From a virus: 64,000 nt of DNA. How positions within the stretch are numbered: position 1 is the stretch's first letter; each line of letters starts with the position of its first letter. The position numbers and the translations under genes are program-made. The notes below the pieces were generated by a model. The model saw nothing but the letters and a program-made list of their open reading frames with translations. It ran no database searches and was not told where the DNA came from. The stretch covers positions 29,905 through 93,904 of IMG/VR virus record IMGVR_UViG_3300019754_000001, one strand, 5' to 3'. Positions 2,726-64,000 of the stretch are shown piece after piece.

Positions 2726-2908
2726 ATGGAAGACAAAGAATATAATTATAGATTAATATTTATAGATGGACATAGATTTGATACAAAAAGCAATAAAAGT
2801 TTAAAAGAATTTACAGAATATTTATTAGAGCTTAAAATAATATTTACTAATGATGCCTCTTTCATGGTAGCTCATCTAGTAGTAATACAAGACATTACAA
2901 ATAAATAA
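2726..2908 (+). CDS. hypothetical protein (60 aa)
   Basis: ORF in operon with AT-rich initiation region. Confidence 0.65.
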   Translation: MEDKEYNYRLIFIDGHRFDTKSNKSLKEFTEYLLELKIIFTNDASFMVAHLVVIQDITNK

Positions 2909-2924
2909 TTAAATATTATAGGAA

Positions 2925-3725
2925 ATGAATAAAAGTTTCACAGTTTTAGGAAACGCACATCTAATAAAGCAGTTCTTAGAAGATATAAGAATAAAAGGAT
3001 ATGAATTTAAAGGAAATGAATTTATATTACAAATATTCTTAAAGTACTTTGAAGTAGCAGCAGAGGCAGATAAATCACACTATGACCTAGATACTCAATA
3101 TAAGGATGCTTTAGACCATTACAAACAATTAGAATTAGATGATATAGCTGATAAGGGAGCAAATAGTGTACTAAATGACCTTATGTATAAAGCCTTCACA
3201 CATACTTACCAGTACGAAAAGCAGCAAGAAGAGAAAGAGAAAGTAGAAAGAGCGTATAGGGAAAAAGTAGAAAGGATGGCAGAAGGATTTTGGGAAAAGG
3301 GTGGCATACGCATAATTCATATAAACCGTGTGGATTACCTCCAACCTCCCCCCGGATTTAAGTTAAGTAGTTCAGATGTAATAGGTGTAATAGACCATAA
3401 TAGAAAAGAATCTGCAAAAGAGTATGGATTTAAATTAACAAATCCAAATACAGAAGAAATGCTAGAAAAATTAGCAAGTTTTTATACACCCAAAGAAGAT
3501 AGTTTAAATATGGGCTTTCTTACCTACGTTACAAACGATAAAGAAAAAATACATAGTATAGACACTGAAGTATTTGCAGTAAGAGGTACAGGTATTCAGA
3601 AGATGACTTTACTTGAAGCTCTCCAAATGCAAGATGTTATTATTTTTGCTAGAGAAGAGAACGCTAACAAGTGTGCATACGATAGGCACGTTGAAAGATT
3701 AAAGAAAGTATATAAACAGAAATAG
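2925..3725 (+). CDS. hypothetical protein (266 aa)
   Basis: Long ORF in operon; no motif recognised. Confidence 0.75.
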   Translation: MNKSFTVLGNAHLIKQFLEDIRIKGYEFKGNEFILQIFLKYFEVAAEADKSHYDLDTQYKDALDHYKQLELDDIADKGANSVLNDLMYKAFTHTYQYEKQQEEKEKVERAYREKVERMAEGFWEKGGIRIIHINRVDYLQPPPGFKLSSSDVIGVIDHNRKESAKEYGFKLTNPNTEEMLEKLASFYTPKEDSLNMGFLTYVTNDKEKIHSIDTEVFAVRGTGIQKMTLLEALQMQDVIIFAREENANKCAYDRHVERLKKVYKQK

Positions 3726-3726
3726 T

Positions 3727-4032
3727 ATGAAAGATAAATTAAAATTTAAATTAGATTCAGAAGAACTTCGCAATATAGTATATGAAAATTACTGCATAGA
3801 TACTAACGGAAATGAATGGGAATTTGAAACTATAGAGAATATTCATGAGGGAGAAGGAAGACATGAAACATTCTGGAGTAGGGTAGTTAAAAGAAATGAC
3901 GGGATTTTCTTTAAGATTAAGTGGGCTAGCTCTATAAAAGATAATATGGATTGGGAAGTATGTAACCCCCTAAAAGAGTACACTGTTGAAGAGGTAATTG
4001 CAACAGATGTAACAATTACAAAGTATTTATAA
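3727..4032 (+). CDS. hypothetical protein (101 aa)
   Basis: Starts 1 nt after the previous stop. Confidence 0.75.
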   Translation: MKDKLKFKLDSEELRNIVYENYCIDTNGNEWEFETIENIHEGEGRHETFWSRVVKRNDGIFFKIKWASSIKDNMDWEVCNPLKEYTVEEVIATDVTITKYL

Positions 4033-4092
4033 CTATAATTATATTCAATAGATAGCATAGACAAATTAAATTCTTACTTAAATAATATTAAT

Positions 4093-4395
4093 ATGAGAGA
4101 ATTTAAAACAAGCCCATATGGAGATATAGTAGATTTAGATGATAAAGAAACATTTAAGCACTTACCAAATACCATTAAATCACTGGGAAAGCTAATGCTT
4201 AGTGAAATAGGATATGCTATTTGCTATATGGATTATTGGCATAAAGATGTATTTAAAATAGATGACCCACAGAGAAAAAGAGTAAACAAGCTAATTAAAG
4301 ACTTCACAGAGAACGAAATAAATAACTATAAGAACGTTAAGTGGTATAGAGAGCAGGTATTCTTATTTCAGGATGAGATAGAAAATATGTGTTAA
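4093..4395 (+). CDS. hypothetical protein (100 aa)
   Basis: Last + gene before the convergent terminator. Confidence 0.75.
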   Translation: MREFKTSPYGDIVDLDDKETFKHLPNTIKSLGKLMLSEIGYAICYMDYWHKDVFKIDDPQRKRVNKLIKDFTENEINNYKNVKWYREQVFLFQDEIENMC

Positions 4396-4409
4396 AGATT
4401 AGCACAAAC

Positions 4410-4457
4410 AAAAAAAGGGGAACCCTACCATTACGGTAGAGTTCCCCTATTTTTTTT
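4410..4457. terminator. bidirectional intrinsic terminator between convergent modules
   Basis: A-run, aggggaac-c-ctacc / attac / ggtag-a-gttcccct stem (4416-4448), T-run. Confidence 0.9.
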
Positions 4458-7400
4458 ACAACCACCTCTGGAACATAGCCAATCCAGGGATTGCTCTAAA
4501 AGTTCCTTTAATGAGGTAAGTTTCATCATGTCTAGCATCATCGCTAGTTGCGTATTTAGTAACCACGCTAGGAATATTGACTACATTGTCAATTGTTCTT
4601 AGAAGTGGGGATGGATTCTTAAACATATCCATAAGAGCTTTAGGGTTCATATAGAGTGATACATCATCTTGCAACCTAGATACTGTCTTATATGCTAATC
4701 TGTAACCTTCAGCCTTCTCATCTTCATCATCAAATGCTAAATTAGCTATCAACATAGCAGCACTCATCATAAGAAACCATTGAATCTCCTTCAAGTTTCT
4801 TCTCATGTTGTCTAAATCTGTTTGCATCTCTTTATTATCTGCATTAAACTCTTCTCCAACTGCTAAGTTCTTTAATAGTATTGATTTCATTATCTTAACA
4901 CTATTGGCAAAGCCTAAGTCTTTATAGGTTCTATATCTACCCTTCACAGGGTCTCCCATCTGGTCATCTTCTTTATAAGTTTCTATTCTAGTTGCAATAC
5001 CCTCAGCTATCCAAGATTTAAGAGCTAATGTAGCCCTCCCTATTAAATACTTCTTAGCTTGCATAGGGGAGGAGGGGTCATAGTTACCATGAACCCTCTT
5101 AATTAGCTGTATTAGATTGTTTCTCTTCTTTGTAAAGCTATTTGACTTAGTAGCATCATACATAGTATCCCATTGCTCACTGTCTAAAACTTCTTCTGAC
5201 ATGTTAGCGTGGTTATCATAAGACTCCCACAAGCTAACTTCTGTGCCGTCTACAGTTTGAACTTTAGTGTGCATTAGATTAGCAACCAACACAGCAGCTT
5301 GATTTAAATATTCAGCCCTTTTAGTAAGTTCCATTGGGGCAGCCAAGCCAAGTTTCTTATTATGCTCTTTAATCTTAGAACTCCCAGAGGCATCCTCCAA
5401 CAAGTCAAACATAATACCATATTTTGCCATAAGACTTCTAACTTTAGTAGAAACATCATCAACACGTCCTGTAGCAGATCTCTTCATTGAGTGCTTTAAT
5501 ACACCCATAGCTCTATTAAGTTCCTGCTTAGTGAAATACCTACCAGAAGCAGCTTCTACACTATTTGATATATACCCATATAAAGTATTTGTAAGTGCTG
5601 AGGAAGCATTCCAACCCAAAGATGTAAAAAAAGTTAACTTTAAAGCTTTATCGAATGCCTTGACGGGTGATACAAATCCAGTATCTTGTACCGCATCTTT
5701 CCTTGCCTGTATACTTAATTTTCTTTCTTCATAATCTTCTTTTTCTACTCTGCCGTGCATCATATCTAGCTCTAATTCATTCTTTTCTTTTTTTAATGCT
5801 TTTAATGTTTTTCTTGCCTCTTTTGTTAATCCTACCTTGGTTGATAAAATTCCACCCTTATTATGGCCTTTATTGTATAATATATTATCTATTTCATACT
5901 CTAACTGCCTAACAACATTAAGTTTTTCTCCCTTACCTATCTTATTTCTTATAATGCTATTGGATTTTGATTTTTCTATTTCTATTGATTTTTCTACCAT
6001 CTCCTTTCCTATTGTTAATATATCTTCTACTGCTGATTTTCTTTTATAGTTAATTGCTGAAAAGGAAAACATTTTAAATGCTTTTATAACATCAGAAGAC
6101 TTGCTATTAAATTCTCTATCGTAGTCACTTTTTATACTATCTCTAGTTCCTTTAACTACATCTAAAATATCTTTTTGTATTTTTATTGATGCTTCCGTAG
6201 CCCCTTTACTAGTAATGTGGCCATTAAATACAGACTCTTGTCTTATATAGTCTTTTTCAGCCTTACTTAATGCAACTCTTAATTTTCCTACAGTATCCTT
6301 AGTAAACTTAATAGGAACTGATTTTATAGGCTTACCGTTACTATCTCTCAACTGAGAATCTAAATCATCCTGCTCCTCTGAAAGGCCCCCATAGACTCTA
6401 TCTAATAGAGACTTTCCTGTAATTACACCTGCTATACCCTCATCTCTAACTTTTTCAAGTATGTCTTTATTTACCTGAGGTAAGTGATTATGTTGTAAAG
6501 CGTATGCAACGTGGGGTGGAAAGTAATCCTTAAGGTTGTTAATATTCTCTGTTATAAAATTATAAAGCTTTCCGTATGTTTCTGGATTGTTTTGTATAAA
6601 TTCATAATCTTTATCATACCATTCACTCTTTTGTCCATTTACCTCACTTTTTGGTGCATAGGATAGAAATCTTGTAACACTGGTAAAGTTAGTAGTTTCT
6701 ACATTATTACTAGTTAACTCTTCATATAACTGCATTGGGTTATTATAAGATTCCCACTCAGCTATCTTACCCTTGTATTCTGCTATTGTTTTAAATCCTA
6801 CCCTCCCCGCATCGTGGTATCTCTGAAAGGTTTCAACAACTGCCACTTTAGATTTATTATAAGATGTAATCTTCTTTTCCATAGATGATACCAATCTCTC
6901 TCCTACAACTTCACCTAATAGGTCTTTTATCTTAGCAATCTCTTCATTTCTAGCGTCCTCATTATCATTACCAAAAAGGATATTATAGTTAGGTAAATAA
7001 ATATTATCCATAAAGTCTTGATAAGCTTTCTTTTTTTGATTCTTCTTTCTAGCATCCTTAACCCTATTAAGTTGACCTAACTCTACTCTTTGTTTAGATT
7101 TCCAATCATAGTAGCTTTGTGAAAAAACATCTACAAGATTTTTAGTTATATTACCATCAGCATCTTTCTGTAACACCCTCTCGTTAAAATCTTTTCCATT
7201 CTTATCGAATCCAGTCTCCTCTAATATCTTAGTCAATTGAATACCAATAGTTTCCTCAAATTCAGCCATAATGTTTCTATTAGTGTCTTTAAGGACTCCT
7301 GATAGATAAGATACTAATTTATTATCTACCCTAGAACTATCCATTACAGCAGACCAAAGTAGCCCTACATCTTTAATTTCTGTTAAATCTTTTAATGGTA

Positions 7401-56963: not shown

Positions 56964-57241
56964 GACCTTTCAATTATATTTAAAATAGTTAATAATTCCC
57001 TTTCACTTTTAAAGATACCTCTAAACCTTACTACCATTACCTTAATATCTTTTCCTACTACTTCAATCTTTACATTTTCTTTTATTGTTATTTTTAACTC
57101 ATTCTCCTCTATCTCTAATAAAACTTCTACTATCTTTAATCCTTTTCTTAATATATTTTCTATATTCCATTTTCCTTCTTCTATTTCTTTATAACCTTTA
57201 AACTTTAATATCTTATAAATAGCTTCTATAAACTCTTTCAT
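56954..57241 (-). CDS. hypothetical protein (95 aa), first gene of the late module
   Basis: ORF about 100 nt downstream of the leftward promoter. Confidence 0.65.
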   Translation of the reverse strand: MKEFIEAIYKILKFKGYKEIEEGKWNIENILRKGLKIVEVLLEIEENELKITIKENVKIEVVGKDIKVMVVRFRGIFKSERELLTILNIIERSWK

Positions 57242-57298
57242 GCCTTAGTCTTTTATTGTTACTATGTAGTGTATTATGAAATTTGAGTAGTCAAGAGT

Positions 57299-57365
57299 AT
57301 CTTTAATTTGTAACTTTGTGTCCTTGAAAACGAGCTTTCATGCCTCAAAGTTACAAATTAAAGAT
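57299..57365. repeat. perfect 20-bp inverted repeat, each arm containing TAACTTTG
   Basis: atctttaatttgtaactttg (57299-57318) / caaagttacaaattaaagat (57346-57365), 27-nt spacer. Confidence 0.9.
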
Positions 57366-57376
57366 GACTTTTGCAA
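57346..57376 (-). promoter_or_regulatory. leftward Bacteroidota promoter for the late module
   Basis: TTG (57376-57374), N20, TAACTTTG (57353-57346). Confidence 0.7.
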
Positions 57377-57429
57377 TACCCAAAATATCAAAAAACTAGC
57401 ATAAAGAAGAAAGGTAAATAAAATAATAT

Positions 57430-57469
57430 AATAAAGAATAAGAATAAAGAAATAAAGAATAAGAATAAA
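57430..57469 (+). repeat. AT-rich direct repeat
   Basis: aataaagaataagaataaa at 57430-57448 and 57451-57469. Confidence 0.7.
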
Positions 57470-57547
57470 AAAGATAAAGAATAAGTTAAAAGAATTAGAT
57501 TGGGGGATAGTTTATATTTAAGTTTAATATAAATTATATCTTCAATG

Positions 57548-57707
57548 AAGCCATAGAAGAAGACTAGTCGGCGGCTATTGATTAATCCCCCACTTAATAC
57601 CCCCACGCTTAATACTTAAAGATTTTACAACAATAGTAGTCTTACAGGATTTAATCTACTACGTTAGATTGAGCGGCGCGCCGAACTACTGCTTTCTTCT
57701 ATGGCTT
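57548..57707. ncRNA. 160-nt long imperfect hairpin, candidate sRNA or cruciform
   Basis: aagccatagaaga / tcttctatggctt closing stem, inner cggcg / cgccg and gattaatcc / ggatttaatc pairings. Confidence 0.5.
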
Positions 57708-58038
57708 AAGTGCTAAAATACTTAGAATTTATATATAGGAAAGACACTTGATAAATAACCCCCCCCCTTCCAATAATTCATTAAGAACAATAGATATAAA
57801 ACAATAGCTACTGGAAAGAGAATAGAGATGAGCCCCTCTATATACTACTTATTGTTGAAAAGGAGGTATTGAAAAAGAAAGGAGAGGAGTAGTGGGGGGG
57901 GTTATTATAGAAAAGTGATATAAAAAAAGGAAATATAAGGGGGGGGTATAATGTAAGGTAGATAATATAGAATAGGAGAATGTGGAGGGATATTATGTGG
58001 GAGGGTATTATAAGGGAAGGTATCGTGTTGGAGATATT

Positions 58039-58074
58039 GGGGGGAGGTGGGGGGGGGAGAGGTGGGGGGGGGAG
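58039..58074 (+). other. G-quadruplex-capable G-run cluster
   Basis: G6-a-gg-t-G9-aga-gg-t-G9. Confidence 0.6.
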
Positions 58075-58244
58075 TATAAAAAATTTTTATATAAAAAAAA
58101 ATTAGTATGTCGGTATATATATAGAACACTTTAGGAGACCCCTACGGTGTATTGGTTGTATTGAAACCCTACGGGGGAGTAAGCAGATACAGCTCGGTTT
58201 AAAAGTGAACCGGATAACGAATCACTTCAAATACATTTACAGTT

Positions 58245-58754
58245 ATGGCACAGCCGAAAGCGGAAGCTACATTCAAATCAACGTCTTTATTTAACGGTTT
58301 TAAAGTCCGCCAAGACGGTTCAGTTTACATTTCAACATCCTTAGCAGTAACTAAAGCTACTGAGGTAATATCCAAATCGGGACGAAAAAGGATATACAAT
58401 ATCGGCGATAAAATGCCGTTAGCTATCCCAAGTTCTACAAAGTTCATGAGAGCAATTGGACTGGACTGGACACCTGGAAAAACAATGCTGGATATCTTTT
58501 CCAGAGAGTTAACAGTAGGCACAGCCTACGAGGGCACAGATGGCAAGGAATTCATCTTCGGTTTAGACAAGGATGGTAATCCCTATGAGGGCAATCCTGT
58601 AGGGACTGCTATCGAACGTTTCGAAGCTACGGCTTCAGAAGAACAAGAGGTTAACACACACCTCGTTAATGCAATTGAAACAGCTCAGGCTAATGCCTAC
58701 CTAAACATGGTTGGTGCAATGGCTAAAGAGGAAACTTCTGCCGACTTGGACTAA
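58245..58754 (+). CDS. hypothetical protein, first gene of the rightward (probably early) region
   Basis: 169 aa; structured leader upstream; strong hairpin downstream; acidic C-terminus. Confidence 0.8.
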   Translation: MAQPKAEATFKSTSLFNGFKVRQDGSVYISTSLAVTKATEVISKSGRKRIYNIGDKMPLAIPSSTKFMRAIGLDWTPGKTMLDIFSRELTVGTAYEGTDGKEFIFGLDKDGNPYEGNPVGTAIERFEATASEEQEVNTHLVNAIETAQANAYLNMVGAMAKEETSADLD

Positions 58755-58761
58755 TAACAAA

Positions 58762-58788
58762 ATCCCCTCACTTAATTGTGGGGGGATA
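58762..58788 (+). terminator. hairpin after the 169-aa gene (terminator or processing stem)
   Basis: atcccctcac / gtggggggat stem; weak U-tract. Confidence 0.5.
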
Positions 58789-58799
58789 CTTGTTAACAC

Positions 58800-61135
58800 C
58801 TGAGGGGCAAGGATAGACTCTCACTTAGTGGATTAATACTACCCACTGGTGGAGGGGCTAATCAATGCTCCACATCCAACTCATGCTACTGATAGTGCTA
58901 CATTACTACGTAATGTTCAGCTCACGGAAAGCCCTCCCATGTAATCTTTTTTACAGGCTACGCAAGAGACCAAGAGGCCAACATATACAAGCCTCCTCCG
59001 TAGATTAGATGAATGAATAAAATAACACAACCCCTTAAGAAGTTTTTTCGCAATATCTTATAGGGTAGTCTCCTCCATTCCTAAGTTTAGGGGGGGGAGA
59101 CAATATATTGTTAAGTTACTAGAGTAGTGGTGATTGTAAGTGGACCAGGTTAATATGGACAGACTCCTAACATACCTCCACCACCCCCCTACAACACTGA
59201 CTTAACAACAATAGTAGGTCACAAAGTCCTCACCTATGCCTTACCTTAATATGTCATGCTTCTGTATGTCATGCTATTGTAGAGTGTGGGGGGGCAGACC
59301 TATGCTAGAGTAGTCTTGGCTAAGATAAGCTTTAGTAAAGTATACTTACTGATGCTTATGGGGCAGTCTGTATGAGGATAAAGACACCCCCCCCCACACA
59401 TCATACTCACCTCAATTCCCCTCCCTACAATAAAACCGATACTGATTCTTTAGTATTCTATTGGTAGTGAAGGTCTCCCCACCCCACACCCTCTCCCTTA
59501 CTTTCCTCACTTCTATAAATTAGATAAGATATCTATTGTTTAAGATGAATGAAATTAAGACTACATTTTATTATAATGTGGAGGAAGTATGTATAACATA
59601 TATTAATACCGTTAAATATACACACACGCTCAATACTCGGCAGAAAACACTAGAGTATAAAACAATATACCCCCAGACTGCAAAGTCAGTAAAAAATAGT
59701 AAACTGGGGTTAGCACATCAGACTGTAAAGTCAGGACAAATAGTAAACTGATGTGTTATTTTAATAGTAAATACAACCTCACTAAAGAGTATAACAAGCG
59801 TTAAGGCATACCACACCAATAGGTGTAAGGTCCCCACGATAGAGGGAGCAAAGGTATAGTAAATGAGGCAACTCTTATCTTATTTAACCTGTCAAACCTC
59901 AATATTGAGAAAGACATAAACCCACAGTTTGGTTAGCTGTATAATCATGGAATAAAACTTATAGTGGGATAATGACCCACCACGCTGCATTGATATGTAG
60001 TAAAACAAACGATGGAGTTATAATAACTCCTGCTCCTATTAGTCTCAGGGGGCAAACTAAGAGACTAAATTTAAAACATCTGCAAAACAAGGAATTGCTG
60101 CTACGGAACGATGTGTAGTAGCATTGAGAATTTGAGCAGATGTTTTTAATAAACTTAAGCCTCCAGAGGCCACACTTACAACTTGAGACGTATGTCCAAT
60201 AGTTTGCACAATAAGCATTAGTCCACTTCGTTCAGAAGAAGATAGGTGTTGTAAGTGAAAAGCAGTGAAATGCTGTAATTTAAACTCTAGTATGTTAAAT
60301 ACTAAATCTCTGAAAATATGTGGAAAGTGTAGGTTATGGAGAGTTGAGTAATGAAGGGCTAATACCTGGAGCTTAGATATCTACAACACTATTTAACTTA
60401 TTAGGGTTTATTTATTAAAGAAAAGCTGCACCCTCCGCAATTAAATACAAACCGGGTTGTAGCCTAAATAGCTTCACAGTGATGTGTGGAGTAGACGAAA
60501 GTCTGAGGAGATGAAAGAGCTCTTATTGACAACACCCTTTATCAGGGGCGAAACTCCGCCTGCATTAAGCGTCTCGGAAATTGTCAATATATATATTATG
60601 TAGGATGAAGGGGGCTACCGAAAGCTCTCCTTCATACCTATGTATTAAAGCCTCATCGTGGGCATTATCTAGTTCGTCCTTACATCTAATATGTGAGGAA
60701 TCTACCCCTTAAAGCTGGAGGGATAGTAGGACAAAAGAAGCTCTAAGGTTACCAGATAAGTGTAGGTAATCTTAGTATCAACACTAGTTACTATATGCAT
60801 GTAGTAGCGACTAATGGAGCAATTTGTTAGTAAATACGTTTAGAGACAACTCTAGTCTTGAAGCGGTATAATGGGCGGTTCGAAACGTTTGTTATATTAA
60901 AAAGATGAATCACTACTTATATAGAGATGCTCCTTTAGAGGGGAGTATGTAAGACTCTATAGTGAGGATTCAGATTACTTGGGAAGAGCCTCATGGAGAG
61001 CCCTTCCCTCGTAATCTAAATAAGGCTACCCTTAGCCTACTAATAATAAGGAATGGTGCAGAAGATTAGCTCTTCGGTCTATCGAAAGATAGGTTTAAAC
61101 CCTCTACGAATGTGTAGGTGTGGAGTTCAAACCAA
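58800..61135 (+). ncRNA. array of structured RNA domains, block 1
   Basis: No credible ORF; consecutive stem-loops, junctions and pseudoknots with + strand G-U pairs and GNRA loops. Confidence 0.65.
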
Positions 61136-61146
61136 TAAATTAAGAT

Positions 61147-61515
61147 ATGACGATTATAGAAACAAAAGCCTATCTTAAAGGCTACCTAGCTGCACTGGGG
61201 ACTAATGTGCAGAATACTAGAGATGAAGATTCCTTATGGAGTCTCAACCAAAAATTAATGTATAACGAGATAGTAACAGAGGTTGGAACCTTGGGATTTA
61301 CGATCAATAGGGGGATATGCCCTGTTGGTGGAAATGTTACTTACGCTTGTACAAGTCCCGAAAATTCTACTGTAGATATATATCTGGGGTGGGCAGACAA
61401 CAAGTTCTTTAAAGAGGCCTTTGAAGGACTCGAAATGGAGTTTGTATACCAAGAGACAAGAATAAGCATAGAGGAGCTTGAAAAACTCTTATATGTTTTA
61501 GAGATAAAAGACTAA
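61147..61515 (+). CDS. hypothetical protein (122 aa)
   Basis: ORF with AT-rich initiation region between the RNA blocks. Confidence 0.75.
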   Translation: MTIIETKAYLKGYLAALGTNVQNTRDEDSLWSLNQKLMYNEIVTEVGTLGFTINRGICPVGGNVTYACTSPENSTVDIYLGWADNKFFKEAFEGLEMEFVYQETRISIEELEKLLYVLEIKD

Positions 61516-61634
61516 TAATATTTAATCTTCAATTAGCGACAATAAGTGAGAGTGTCCGCTTCATTAAGAAGAAGTAAGAGATACTGTTAAAATACTATTA
61601 TACACTTATAATAAAAATATGATGTAAAATAAAT

Positions 61635-61802
61635 ATGAACTATCGAAGAGAAGCTAGAGAAGTAACACAAAACCATTATGGAGGATATTGTGAGATGTGT
61701 AGAAAGTTAGGAATTAAAATAGTTCCTTATCATAAATTTACTATGGAATTATATGATAAAATTAAAGAGTTAAGTAAAATAAAAAAAGATTTTAAAAGAT
61801 AA
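61635..61802 (+). CDS. unannotated 55-aa basic protein with CxxC
   Basis: Translated by hand: MNYRREAREVTQNHYGGYCEMCRKLGIKIVPYHKFTMELYDKIKELSKIKKDFKR; taaaataaat upstream of ATG. Confidence 0.65.
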   Translation: MNYRREAREVTQNHYGGYCEMCRKLGIKIVPYHKFTMELYDKIKELSKIKKDFKR

Positions 61803-61804
61803 GC

Positions 61805-62540
61805 CCTAATTAAACTCCTAACACAGTTAAGACTACCCTCACTAACGCATGCAAAGCGAATAAAGGGAAACGCTGTGGCCTATTGGCAATAGGTGGAGAG
61901 TATTAATTGGTATTTAAAGAATTGGAGTGCCTTGCCAAAGCTAGGTAAAATACCCACTCACACTAAGATTCAATAGATACTTGCCAAGGGGCTTTATATT
62001 ATTAAAGGCAGGCCACCCTTCTGTGGTAATTCTCCCTTATGATATATTAGAATTTGAGGACTTTGGGGAAGTTTTAAACAAAGATAAAGACCTGAAATTA
62101 CACGTGCCTGAAAGAGCATGAATAAGAATTTATAGTTACTGACTGAACGATACTATATATAGAGGGATAACAACCCCACAGGTATTGAGTTGTCCCCCCC
62201 AAACTGTCGTAGTATGGGGGAGCTCAGACAGGACAAGGAAAGTAACGAGAATGATAGACTTAAACTATTAGGCTACTGAATCCTCTACGTAAGTAGAAAG
62301 CTTATTGGAAACAATAGGAAGATTGTTACCTCTGACAAGGTAATATAGTGGAGAATGGCACAGGTATGTGAGATAAAGCTCACATCTATCATTACAATCT
62401 TAACAAGCGTCAAGCATGAAGCCCTGAGAGGGGTGGAATAGTTTAAATCGATATACAACACTGTCTCCTTTATTGGAAGTGGAAAATGTAGAAGATTGTG
62501 ACTATGACCTAAACCCTACCATGTTGGAGGGCATGGTGCT
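61805..62540 (+). ncRNA. array of structured RNA domains, block 2
   Basis: Multi-stem domains, e.g. aatgataga / tctatcatt enclosing tctac-GTAA-gtaga and cttattg-GAAA-caatagg. Confidence 0.65.
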
Positions 62541-62565
62541 AAAATATTAACTCTAATTTAAAGAC

Positions 62566-63309
62566 ATGAAAGTAAACATTAATCGCCTTGAAGATGAGGA
62601 ATACTTAACTGAAATTAAGTTAGGTAAGGAAAGAATAGTCAGGAGGTGGTATAGAGATACACCCCATATTTACGATTACACAAAGTTTTTAAGACTAGTT
62701 GATAAGTTAGTCGGCAAGCATGTTAATGTGCTTAAAAGAAAGTTACGTAAGGATAGGTGCTATCAATCTCCAGAACAGATAGTGAGGAGATATATGTTAG
62801 TGTTGAATAGGAATGGAGACATTATAAATGAGGACGGCTTAGTATATAAACCTACTCACGGAAGGGCTAACAGTTATTTAGTTAACTCTGATGGTATAAT
62901 ATCTATTACATATGAGAGAGTAGCTAAAAAGCAACCCACACTGACAAAGAGTGAAATTCTAACAAAAAAGATTGATAATCTTAGTGAAGCATATGGATTA
63001 GCTTTGAGGCTCTATAAATGCAGACAAGATTGGGGATTAATACCTCCATCAGATAGAAGGAGAGCCATGCGTAATATCCTATACGCATATCAAAGCCAGG
63101 CTGATGACCTATATACTGCTTACATGCACTCCAACAATTATAATACTAACAAATTTGATGGAGACAGAGTTAGAAAAATACCACAAAGGTATATAAAGGC
63201 TCTAAAAGGTAAGAAAGAGCATGTGAAAGTAAGGAAGGTGGAAGTAATTAAACCCACCCCCATACGAGTAAACTCTCCATATATCCACCTACCTGGAATA
63301 TGTGGATAA
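62566..63309 (+). CDS. hypothetical basic protein (247 aa)
   Basis: Long ORF with AT-rich initiation region. Confidence 0.75.
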   Translation: MKVNINRLEDEEYLTEIKLGKERIVRRWYRDTPHIYDYTKFLRLVDKLVGKHVNVLKRKLRKDRCYQSPEQIVRRYMLVLNRNGDIINEDGLVYKPTHGRANSYLVNSDGIISITYERVAKKQPTLTKSEILTKKIDNLSEAYGLALRLYKCRQDWGLIPPSDRRRAMRNILYAYQSQADDLYTAYMHSNNYNTNKFDGDRVRKIPQRYIKALKGKKEHVKVRKVEVIKPTPIRVNSPYIHLPGICG

Positions 63310-63341
63310 TACTGAATTATTATTAACATTAAATATATATT

Positions 63342-63794
63342 ATGAAGTACGTAAAAGCAATTTATGAAAAAGGTCAGCCGATAACAATGGTTGAGAAAGA
63401 GGAAGCCACTGAATTGGTATCTAAAGGAACACATATTGTTGTATCTCGCCAAGAGGGAGAGGTCAATAGTAAGCATCACGAAGTTATCCCATGCCTTGGC
63501 ACAGCCGAGTGGGTAAACGATGCAAACGGTAATAAGGTTAAGCTCAATGTAGAGCAAAACCGTAAGTTCGAGTCAAGCAAAGTATATCCGAACAGCACCA
63601 AGATGGGAGCAGGAGCCTCACAGATTGGAACAGTTCGCCGGAAAGGAAAATACAACTATCCTTCAAAAGAGGAAACAGTTGTAGAAACTTACCTCACAAA
63701 GACAGGCATAGCTAAATTGGACAAATGCTCTACCAGTGAGGAGGAAAATGCTGTACTGGAAAAGTATAGTAAAAACCGACATCACGCAATATAA
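63342..63794 (+). CDS. hypothetical protein (150 aa)
   Basis: ORF with AT-rich initiation region. Confidence 0.75.
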   Translation: MKYVKAIYEKGQPITMVEKEEATELVSKGTHIVVSRQEGEVNSKHHEVIPCLGTAEWVNDANGNKVKLNVEQNRKFESSKVYPNSTKMGAGASQIGTVRRKGKYNYPSKEETVVETYLTKTGIAKLDKCSTSEEENAVLEKYSKNRHHAI

Positions 63795-64000
63795 CATGTT
63801 TCCCACCCAAACAGTGAGGGTGAGTCGAAAGACTAAAAGTATCTGAATATTAAGTTTTAAACTTTGCATGTACTATGAAGTTGAAGATTTAAGAAAGTAT
63901 ATACATGGAAACATGTTAATCCCTCGCGCACATATATTGTTTGATTTGATTTGATTTAATACTGCGCGTATACTTTCTATGACAAGGGGGTAAATATAAA

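Follow-up and report, generated by a model that had tools for sequence, protein, structure and literature searches.

A gene-poor stretch opens the early arm of a crAss-like phage

The viral record IMGVR_UViG_3300019754_000001 contains, at positions 58755-62565 of the window analyzed here, a stretch of DNA with only two small open reading frames (ORFs), which an earlier sequence-only reading had taken for a candidate array of structured RNA domains. The window is a 64,000-nucleotide (nt) piece of the record (bases 29905-93904), and window coordinates are used below. The record comprises 93,904 bp and carries a 123-bp exact terminal repeat, so that the end of the window joins the genome start. 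The host genome is that of a crAss-like phage: its major capsid protein matches the Pfam family Crass_capsid (PF23898, E 2.6e-76), its terminase matches a crAss-type PHROG, and the relatives of that terminase are crAss-like. The giant proteins usual for crAss-like phages are also present (1533, 2915, and 2006 amino acids, aa). The sequence turned up only in microbial-mat metagenomes, where three DNA runs showed zero differences; among the sequencing runs found to contain window sequence, there was no RNA run.

The late module of this phage lies on the - strand and extends up to ∼57241, and from 58245 on all genes lie on the + strand, continuing past the genome start. The first gene of this rightward arm encodes 169 aa (58245-58754, +), and the stretch is located directly 3′ of it. 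Four + strand transfer RNA (tRNA) genes, for Arg-CCU, Arg-UCU, and two Met-CAU, are found just beyond the window end, and the early arm here also carries, in these tRNAs, stable-RNA genes. No + strand terminator-like site was found in 57000-64000, and no Bacteroidota-type -7 box was found on the + strand within the non-coding parts of the stretch; together, these results fit read-through from upstream.

The gaps show no coding signal

Three segments were treated as non-coding, namely 58755-61146 (gap A), 61516-61634, and 61803-62565 (gap B), giving a non-coding total of ∼3.3 kb. The claim of the sequence-only reading that intergenic space is near zero elsewhere was upheld: stretches of 300 bp or more that lack an ORF of at least 70 aa occur only at 58755-59535, 59752-61146, and 61516-62565, plus the tRNA area at the genome start. 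When TAG was read as Q, TGA as W, or stop codons were reassigned in all single and double combinations, no frames were opened beyond the lengths seen in shuffled sequences. Codon log-odds scores, trained on the long genes of the phage, were negative across the gaps on either strand, and most flanking genes scored positive. Moreover, tblastx against ∼90 crAss-like loci gave no trace of a gene remnant or pseudogene.

The two small ORFs of the stretch, by contrast with the gaps, look real, in agreement with the two counted in the sequence-only reading. The 122-aa ORF (61147-61515) is probably a real orphan gene; its predicted protein belongs to no Pfam or PHROG family and has no relative in IMG/VR. 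The 55-aa gene (61635-61802) encodes a small CxxC protein whose only detectable relatives are tblastn matches in 48 Bacillus phage records (35-46% identity), a distribution that is odd for a crAss-like phage gene. A word of 12 nt, rich in A/T and followed by ATG, was also noted twice (family D17; 60589-60603 and 63333-63347). The copy at 63342 starts a 150-aa gene; in the copy at 60597, within gap A, the ATG is immediately followed by TAG, and this element is either a start-stop mini-ORF or a relic gene start.

Stable local folds are concentrated in gap A

The genome was scanned for locally stable folds by using RNALfold with z-scores and a span of 160. Folds at z ≤ -4 covered 35% (+) and 27% (-) of the gaps, compared with 8% elsewhere in the genome; at z ≤ -6, coverage of the gaps was 12.8% (+) and 2.9% (-), compared with 1.0% and 0.6%, respectively, in the rest of the genome. 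When gap A was considered separately, folds at z ≤ -5 covered 29% of its + strand and 17% of its - strand, versus 3-4% of sense-strand coding DNA elsewhere, and folds at z ≤ -6 covered 17.5% (+) and 4% (-), the + strand value comparing with 0.6-1.7% elsewhere. The fold signal is concentrated in gap A, and gap B is only mildly enriched.

Single domains were also compared with dinucleotide shuffles, yielding z-scores of -3.9 to -5.1, with the + strand scoring better than the - strand in each. Perfect inverted repeats of at least 8, 9, or 10 bp with loops of 10-150 nt numbered 16, 6, and 3, respectively, whereas shuffles contained 6.4, 1.7, and 0.4, and the rate in the rest of the genome predicted 11.7, 3.5, and 0.8; the observed counts were above all or nearly all of 200 shuffles. 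Stable folds were not restricted to the gaps, inasmuch as the adjacent early coding sequences (58245-58754, 61147-61515, 62566-63794) had z ≤ -4 coverage of 31% on the + strand versus 4% on the - strand. Because these coding sequences are rich in structure on the + strand only, structure on that strand seems to extend over the whole early arm and to peak in gap A, and the early mRNAs of this phage may generally be structure-rich.

Loop identity points to the + strand, and the gaps are GC-enriched

Tetraloop hairpins were counted when a stem of at least 4 bp enclosed a 4-nt loop. GNRA loops accounted for 8 of the 60 such hairpins on the + strand of the gaps and for 0 of 65 on the - strand, compared with 48 of 1387 (3.5%) elsewhere. 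This result bears out the earlier argument that the GNRA loops point to the + strand, and loop identity is the best discriminator of strand and of RNA versus DNA at this locus. The gaps are also richer in GC than the rest of the window (39% versus 34%); structured RNAs in AT-rich genomes are often GC-enriched. The A/U-rich words that had been proposed to act as linkers between domains occurred at background frequency, without enrichment. Over-represented instead were homopolymer runs of G and C, which pair with each other to clamp domains such as 59279-59407; 12 of the window's 16 G or C runs of at least 6 nt fall in 57.7-62.2 kb.

Folded domains and a tandem motif

Each of the helices and loops quoted in the sequence-only reading was found in its place, and the domains are listed with the other features of the locus in Table 1. 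For some of them both strands were compared. The sub-stretch 60905-61049 of the three-hairpin domain had a fold z-score of -5.1 on the + strand versus -4.0 on the - strand, and the multi-branched domain 62250-62394 folded on the - strand at -34.9 kcal/mol (z -3.5). In the latter domain, two adjacent hairpins bear GNRA loops (GUAA at 62289 and GAAA at 62308).

Table 1. Features of the gene-poor stretch and of the adjoining early arm (window coordinates unless stated; z, z-score; local fold values are from RNALfold)
Feature	Coordinates	Strand	Remarks
Gap A	58755-61146	+	2392 nt, ORF-free, GC 39%; directly after the first + strand gene; main candidate region
Folded domain holding hairpin 58761-58787	58743-58883	+	Local fold -54.2 kcal/mol, z -6.3
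Strong G/C hairpin	58761-58787	+	7 nt past the 169-aa gene's stop codon
Domain closed by a G8/C6 helix	59082-59205	+	Local fold z -3.2; includes helix 59108-59118 / 59198-59208
Branched domain, G7 run paired with C9 run	59279-59407	+	Local fold -50.8 kcal/mol, z -5.3
Two tandem hairpins with a common core	59668-59760	+	Fold z -4.3 (+), -2.2 (-)
Domain with perfect 11-bp helix 60073-60083 / 60136-60146	60042-60171	+	Local fold -44.9 kcal/mol, z -6.2
Domain closed by a perfect 10-bp helix	60173-60257	+	Coordinates verified; no local fold at z ≤ -3 listed
Multi-hairpin domain	60581-60735	+	Local fold -53.1 kcal/mol, z -5.6
Three-hairpin domain with helix 60972-60978 / 61011-61017	60890-61049	+	Local fold z -6.2
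122-aa ORF (probable orphan gene)	61147-61515	+	Codon score positive at 61250, negative at the ends
55-aa gene, small CxxC protein	61635-61802	+	phrog_20390, E 8.5e-10
Gap B	61803-62565	+	763 nt, ORF-free, GC 39%; negative codon score; weaker fold signal
Multi-branched domain, ∼5 hairpins, 9-bp closing helix	62250-62394	+	-40.5 kcal/mol, z -3.9
Last domain before the 247-aa gene	62413-62541	+	Local fold z -3.6
tRNA genes	407-479, 1265-1339, 1948-2023, 2028-2101 (of the genome start)	+	Same early arm

The two tandem hairpins at 59668-59760 share a core in which a 4-bp stem precedes an A-rich strand; the stem's cap is GCAA in one hairpin and GUAA in its partner. Their closing stems differ in sequence, and both pair perfectly (6 and 8 bp); the two-copy alignment (A2) has 85% column identity. 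This motif is the only compensatory-change evidence at hand. A covariance model built on it (R1) recovered only the window copy in 1.4 Mb of crAss-like loci, and a search of IMG/VR with the exact pattern gave no copy beyond the window. When the stretch was compared with itself, weak short motif pairs were the only matches, with no real family of repeated modules.

Known RNA families do not account for the stretch

When the whole window and small pieces of it were searched with the Rfam covariance models, no match reached the gathering score, and relaxing the limit to E 10 brought up nothing but chance-level hits (to one leader RNA, small sRNAs, and eukaryotic RNA families). GOLLD, ROOL, other large Rfam RNAs, ribozymes, and group I and II introns gave no covariance-model match, even at E up to 10. 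ARAGORN found neither a tRNA nor a transfer-messenger RNA (tmRNA) in the window; for tmRNA (RF00023) there was also no Rfam hit at E up to 10, and T-arm words in the gaps did not exceed chance. Retrons, diversity-generating retroelements, and group II intron RNAs were rejected as candidates, as a PF00078 search of the whole phage record found no reverse transcriptase. An array of clustered regularly interspaced short palindromic repeats (CRISPR), or of mimics of such repeats, was rejected likewise, in that only weak short two-copy families and no regular direct repeats were seen. The sequence-only reading had recognized no tRNA, tmRNA, CRISPR, or intron here, which holds by the Rfam, ARAGORN, and repeat searches, and the Rfam scan that it had called for left the stretch without an explanation by known families.

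Relatives share the position but not the sequence

The phage is isolated among known sequences. Its closest terminase (P0002), on a 44.8-kb contig of a metagenome-assembled genome at NCBI that carries the locus tag KAU11_10500, is 64% identical, and the next are at most 53% identical. A terminase alignment brought together 80 crAss-like loci, among which only two, L002 and L004, had local synteny reaching the region. The terminases of L002 and L004 are 50% and 46% identical, respectively, to that of the phage, and the gene order from exonuclease to terminase is kept. In both loci the exonuclease gene is directly followed by several stretches of 0.8-1.7 kb that are poor in ORFs, so that the phage, L002, and L004 have in common an early arm that starts with few genes.

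Wider searches were negative. The stretch had no blastn match among GenBank phages, nor did the 169-aa and 247-aa proteins flanking it have a tblastn match there. Scans of IMG/VR with the 122-aa protein, the 169-aa protein, or the terminase alone found no relative, and a search of the JGI metagenomes with the L002 exonuclease as query returned only L002's own contig, so that no close relative of L002 was obtained. In L002, the nearest relative in IMG/VR, positions 6013-6047 (-) match the Rfam DUF805b RNA (44 bits versus a cut-off of 35.6). This match sits ∼20 nt upstream of the first early gene of L002 (140 aa), and the window has no equivalent hit.

Comparison with phage phi14:2 and other systems

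In the crAss-like Cellulophaga phage phi14:2, the long regions lying between genes, g004-g005 and g005-g006, are transcribed rightward, early, abundantly, and persistently; early genes of that phage are transcribed by an injected virion RNA polymerase and do not share a promoter motif, and the polymerase was assayed on denatured DNA (bioRxiv 10.1101/2020.03.07.982082, Drobysheva et al.). The GenBank record of phi14:2 (NC_021806; L092 in our set) has small early genes that alternate with gaps at 1279-1983 and 2905-4601 (the latter contains the removed g005), and both gaps are GC-enriched relative to their neighbours. Positions 4031-4500 of this record were identified as a tmRNA by ARAGORN (tag GSSVQKLAMVA) and by the Rfam tmRNA model (46 bits, E 6.8e-16, one bit below the gathering score); no RNA gene is annotated at this place in the feature table. 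Another T-arm-like element was noted at 1806-1843 (11.7 bits). Judged by sequence, one of the two published long non-coding RNA (lncRNA) regions of phi14:2 contains a tmRNA gene, and part of the precedent would be a translation-related stable RNA. The predicted tmRNA supplies a concrete function for part of that precedent, and it suggests that the early arm may be an island of RNA genes comprising tRNAs, tmRNA, and other stable RNAs.

The two loci are alike in several respects. Both belong to crAss-like phages, both have ORF-free stretches of at least 0.7 kb among the small genes with which the rightward early arm begins, and in both the gaps lie on the sense strand of the early genes and are GC-enriched. 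They also differ. There is no sequence or model similarity between them (no blastn match, no R1 hit in L092); a tmRNA is found in the phi14:2 region and none in this window; and the phi14:2 gaps lack an excess of stable local folds, whereas gap A has one. Finally, transcription was shown for phi14:2, whereas the present locus is known from sequence alone.

Among other known systems, GOLLD (RF01998) and ROOL (RF03087) resemble the stretch in being large RNAs of many domains, from phages and prophages in their case and a candidate in the present one. The early arm here also contains tRNA genes, near which both GOLLD and ROOL tend to occur. However, in addition to matching neither model, the stretch is several times longer, and no conserved family could be built from it. 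The stable RNAs species 1 and 2 of phage T4 are co-transcribed with its tRNA cluster. The likeness would lie in small helix-closed RNAs that share a transcription unit with tRNAs and are freed by processing, as proposed below for the present locus, but the two T4 RNAs lie inside the tRNA cluster, whereas here at least 10 proposed modules lie 2-5 kb upstream of the tRNAs.

A structured early RNA is the favoured explanation

We lean, with moderate confidence, towards the explanation that transcription of the early + strand genes takes in the stretch and yields a long structured non-coding RNA (ncRNA) from it, either as one transcript or as helix-closed modules. The absence of ORFs and of coding signal, the stable folds, the GNRA loops on the + strand, the GC enrichment, and the perfectly paired stems of the tandem motif all support a + strand ncRNA, and the early rightward intergenic transcription of phi14:2 adds support. 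Under this explanation, the stretch would be the non-coding part of the early rightward (+) transcription unit and a counterpart of the phi14:2 early lncRNAs. It would form a chain of ∼10-16 modules of 60-160 nt, each with its own closing helix, and the modules might either remain joined in one large transcript or be freed by host RNases. The stretch would be co-transcribed with the flanking + strand genes, including the four tRNA genes downstream. By analogy with phi14:2, the transcribing enzyme would be an injected virion RNA polymerase, presumably the 2915-aa protein. We would guess, with low confidence, that the RNAs are stable and act early, serving as decoys or scaffolds in trans or as structures that process or stabilise the transcript.

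Several results weigh against this explanation. Gap B contained zero folds at z ≤ -5, and its z ≤ -4 coverage was 19% on either strand. Comparison with shuffled controls, which the sequence-only reading had proposed for each strand, came out in favour of structure, and of the + strand, for single domains; in fixed 150-nt windows compared with dinucleotide shuffles, however, the gaps (mean z -1.9) did not differ significantly from the neighbouring early coding sequences (-1.6). Imperfect pairs had been described as largely G-U on the + strand, but G-U pairs made up 9.6% on the + strand versus 9.0% on the - strand, without strand bias, which takes away this argument for the + strand. The gaps of L002 and L004 were not GC-enriched, and an excess of folds in them was clear in L004 only, with little in L002. 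No similarity to the stretch was found by blastn, nhmmer, or tblastx in ∼90 crAss-like loci. Because no homologue was found and the sequencing runs showed zero differences, neither cross-species nor population covariation is available.

The main rival explanation takes the stretch for spacer or leftover DNA that evolves fast within a hypervariable early arm; its hairpins would be incidental, or would serve as generic transcript stabilisers or terminators, and no RNA with a function of its own would be made. We regard this as possible but rather unlikely. It would explain why no sequence is conserved with any relative, why the ORF-poor DNA of relatives at the same place looks AT-rich and is only patchily structured, and why the neighbouring early coding sequences are about equally structured in fixed windows; the mini-ORF near 60597, with the same 12 nt upstream as the 150-aa gene, hints at a decayed gene start. 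Set against these points, a genome with hardly any other intergenic space would not be expected to keep 3.3 kb of idle DNA, very stable folds are in 4- to 17-fold excess in gap A, and tblastx left no pseudogene trace. Nor would spacer DNA account for GNRA loops confined to the + strand, GC enrichment, or covariation in the stems of the tandem motif.

A more specific form of the favoured explanation is that the stretch encodes a lineage-specific early RNA set, either a giant multi-domain RNA of >2 kb or a dozen helix-clamped, aptamer-like modules, with host factors as targets in trans, for instance defence proteins, RNases, or the translation apparatus. We consider this form unlikely on present evidence. 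If it were true, large structured RNAs would belong generally to the early programme of Crassvirales while evolving fast.

A DNA-level element was also considered, either an origin of replication or structures that serve the injected virion RNA polymerase as entry sites or promoters and resemble the hairpin promoters of phage N4, and we judge it improbable. N4-type promoters are hairpins of 5-7 bp that enclose 3-nt loops and have a sequence in common upstream of the early transcripts; in the present stretch, the domains are long and have branches. The virion polymerase of crAss phages comes from an enzyme family other than that of N4, and no promoter motif is known for it (bioRxiv 10.1101/2020.03.07.982082). 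That the phi14:2 enzyme was assayed on denatured DNA, and that early transcripts lack a shared upstream motif, would suit structured entry sites, as would the position of the stretch next to the strand switch and its ∼100-bp palindrome (57282-57384). The clustered G/C runs could form hairpins or G-quadruplexes, and the fold excess is seen on the - strand too, as expected from DNA symmetry. However, the majority of domains branch and have closing helices separated by 50-130 nt, which is a poor fit to cruciform extrusion; only the + strand shows the GNRA loops and the most stable folds; and neither iterons nor direct repeats were found in the stretch. To our knowledge, moreover, known origins and promoter sets are all far shorter than 3 kb. 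Last, an array of micro-ORFs below the ORF-length cut-offs is very unlikely: early phage genes are often tiny, a few + strand ORFs of 30-71 aa exist, and the 55-aa gene is real, but by our estimate small + strand ORFs cover only ∼1/3 of the gaps, the codon log-odds are negative across them, and the longest frames are no longer than in shuffles.

crAss-like phages are among the commonest phages known. The kind of element proposed here, a long early non-coding RNA region of a crAss-like phage, is already described; the locus is new, as a sequence-orphan case with a strong intrinsic fold signal. It is an environmental example from microbial mats, with GNRA hairpins on the + strand only and with clamps formed by G and C runs. 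That such stretches can be complete sequence orphans argues for rapid turnover, as in an RNA arms race, or for weak constraint.

Other observations at the locus

Two further sequence features were set aside. The word CTCACT, which recalls the T3 promoter, had no extended consensus, and its excess is a composition effect. A 14-nt long-range complementarity between 58817-58830 and 61540-61553 was at about chance level by estimate.

The 169-aa protein encoded upstream of gap A (58245-58754) has an acidic C-terminal tail. When both flanking proteins (169 aa and 247 aa) were looked up in a protein atlas, weak structural leads were obtained for the 169-aa protein only, to phage families resembling single-stranded DNA-binding protein (SSB), namely DUF669 and SSB, with TM scores of 0.3-0.4 on a poor model.

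Upstream of the first + strand gene there is a cluster of homopolymers at 57759-58072 (C9, G8, G8, G6, G9, G9). The true length of its last runs is uncertain, as the public contig of run X1 breaks inside them; the segment 58039-58072 could form a G-quadruplex. At the strand switch itself lies the near-perfect palindrome of ∼100 bp at 57282-57384, with perfect 20-bp arms (57299-57318 / 57346-57365). Both arms end in TAACTTTG, which is of the Bacteroidota -7 box type, and the boxes face each other. This palindrome is the strongest local fold of the area (z -7.7).

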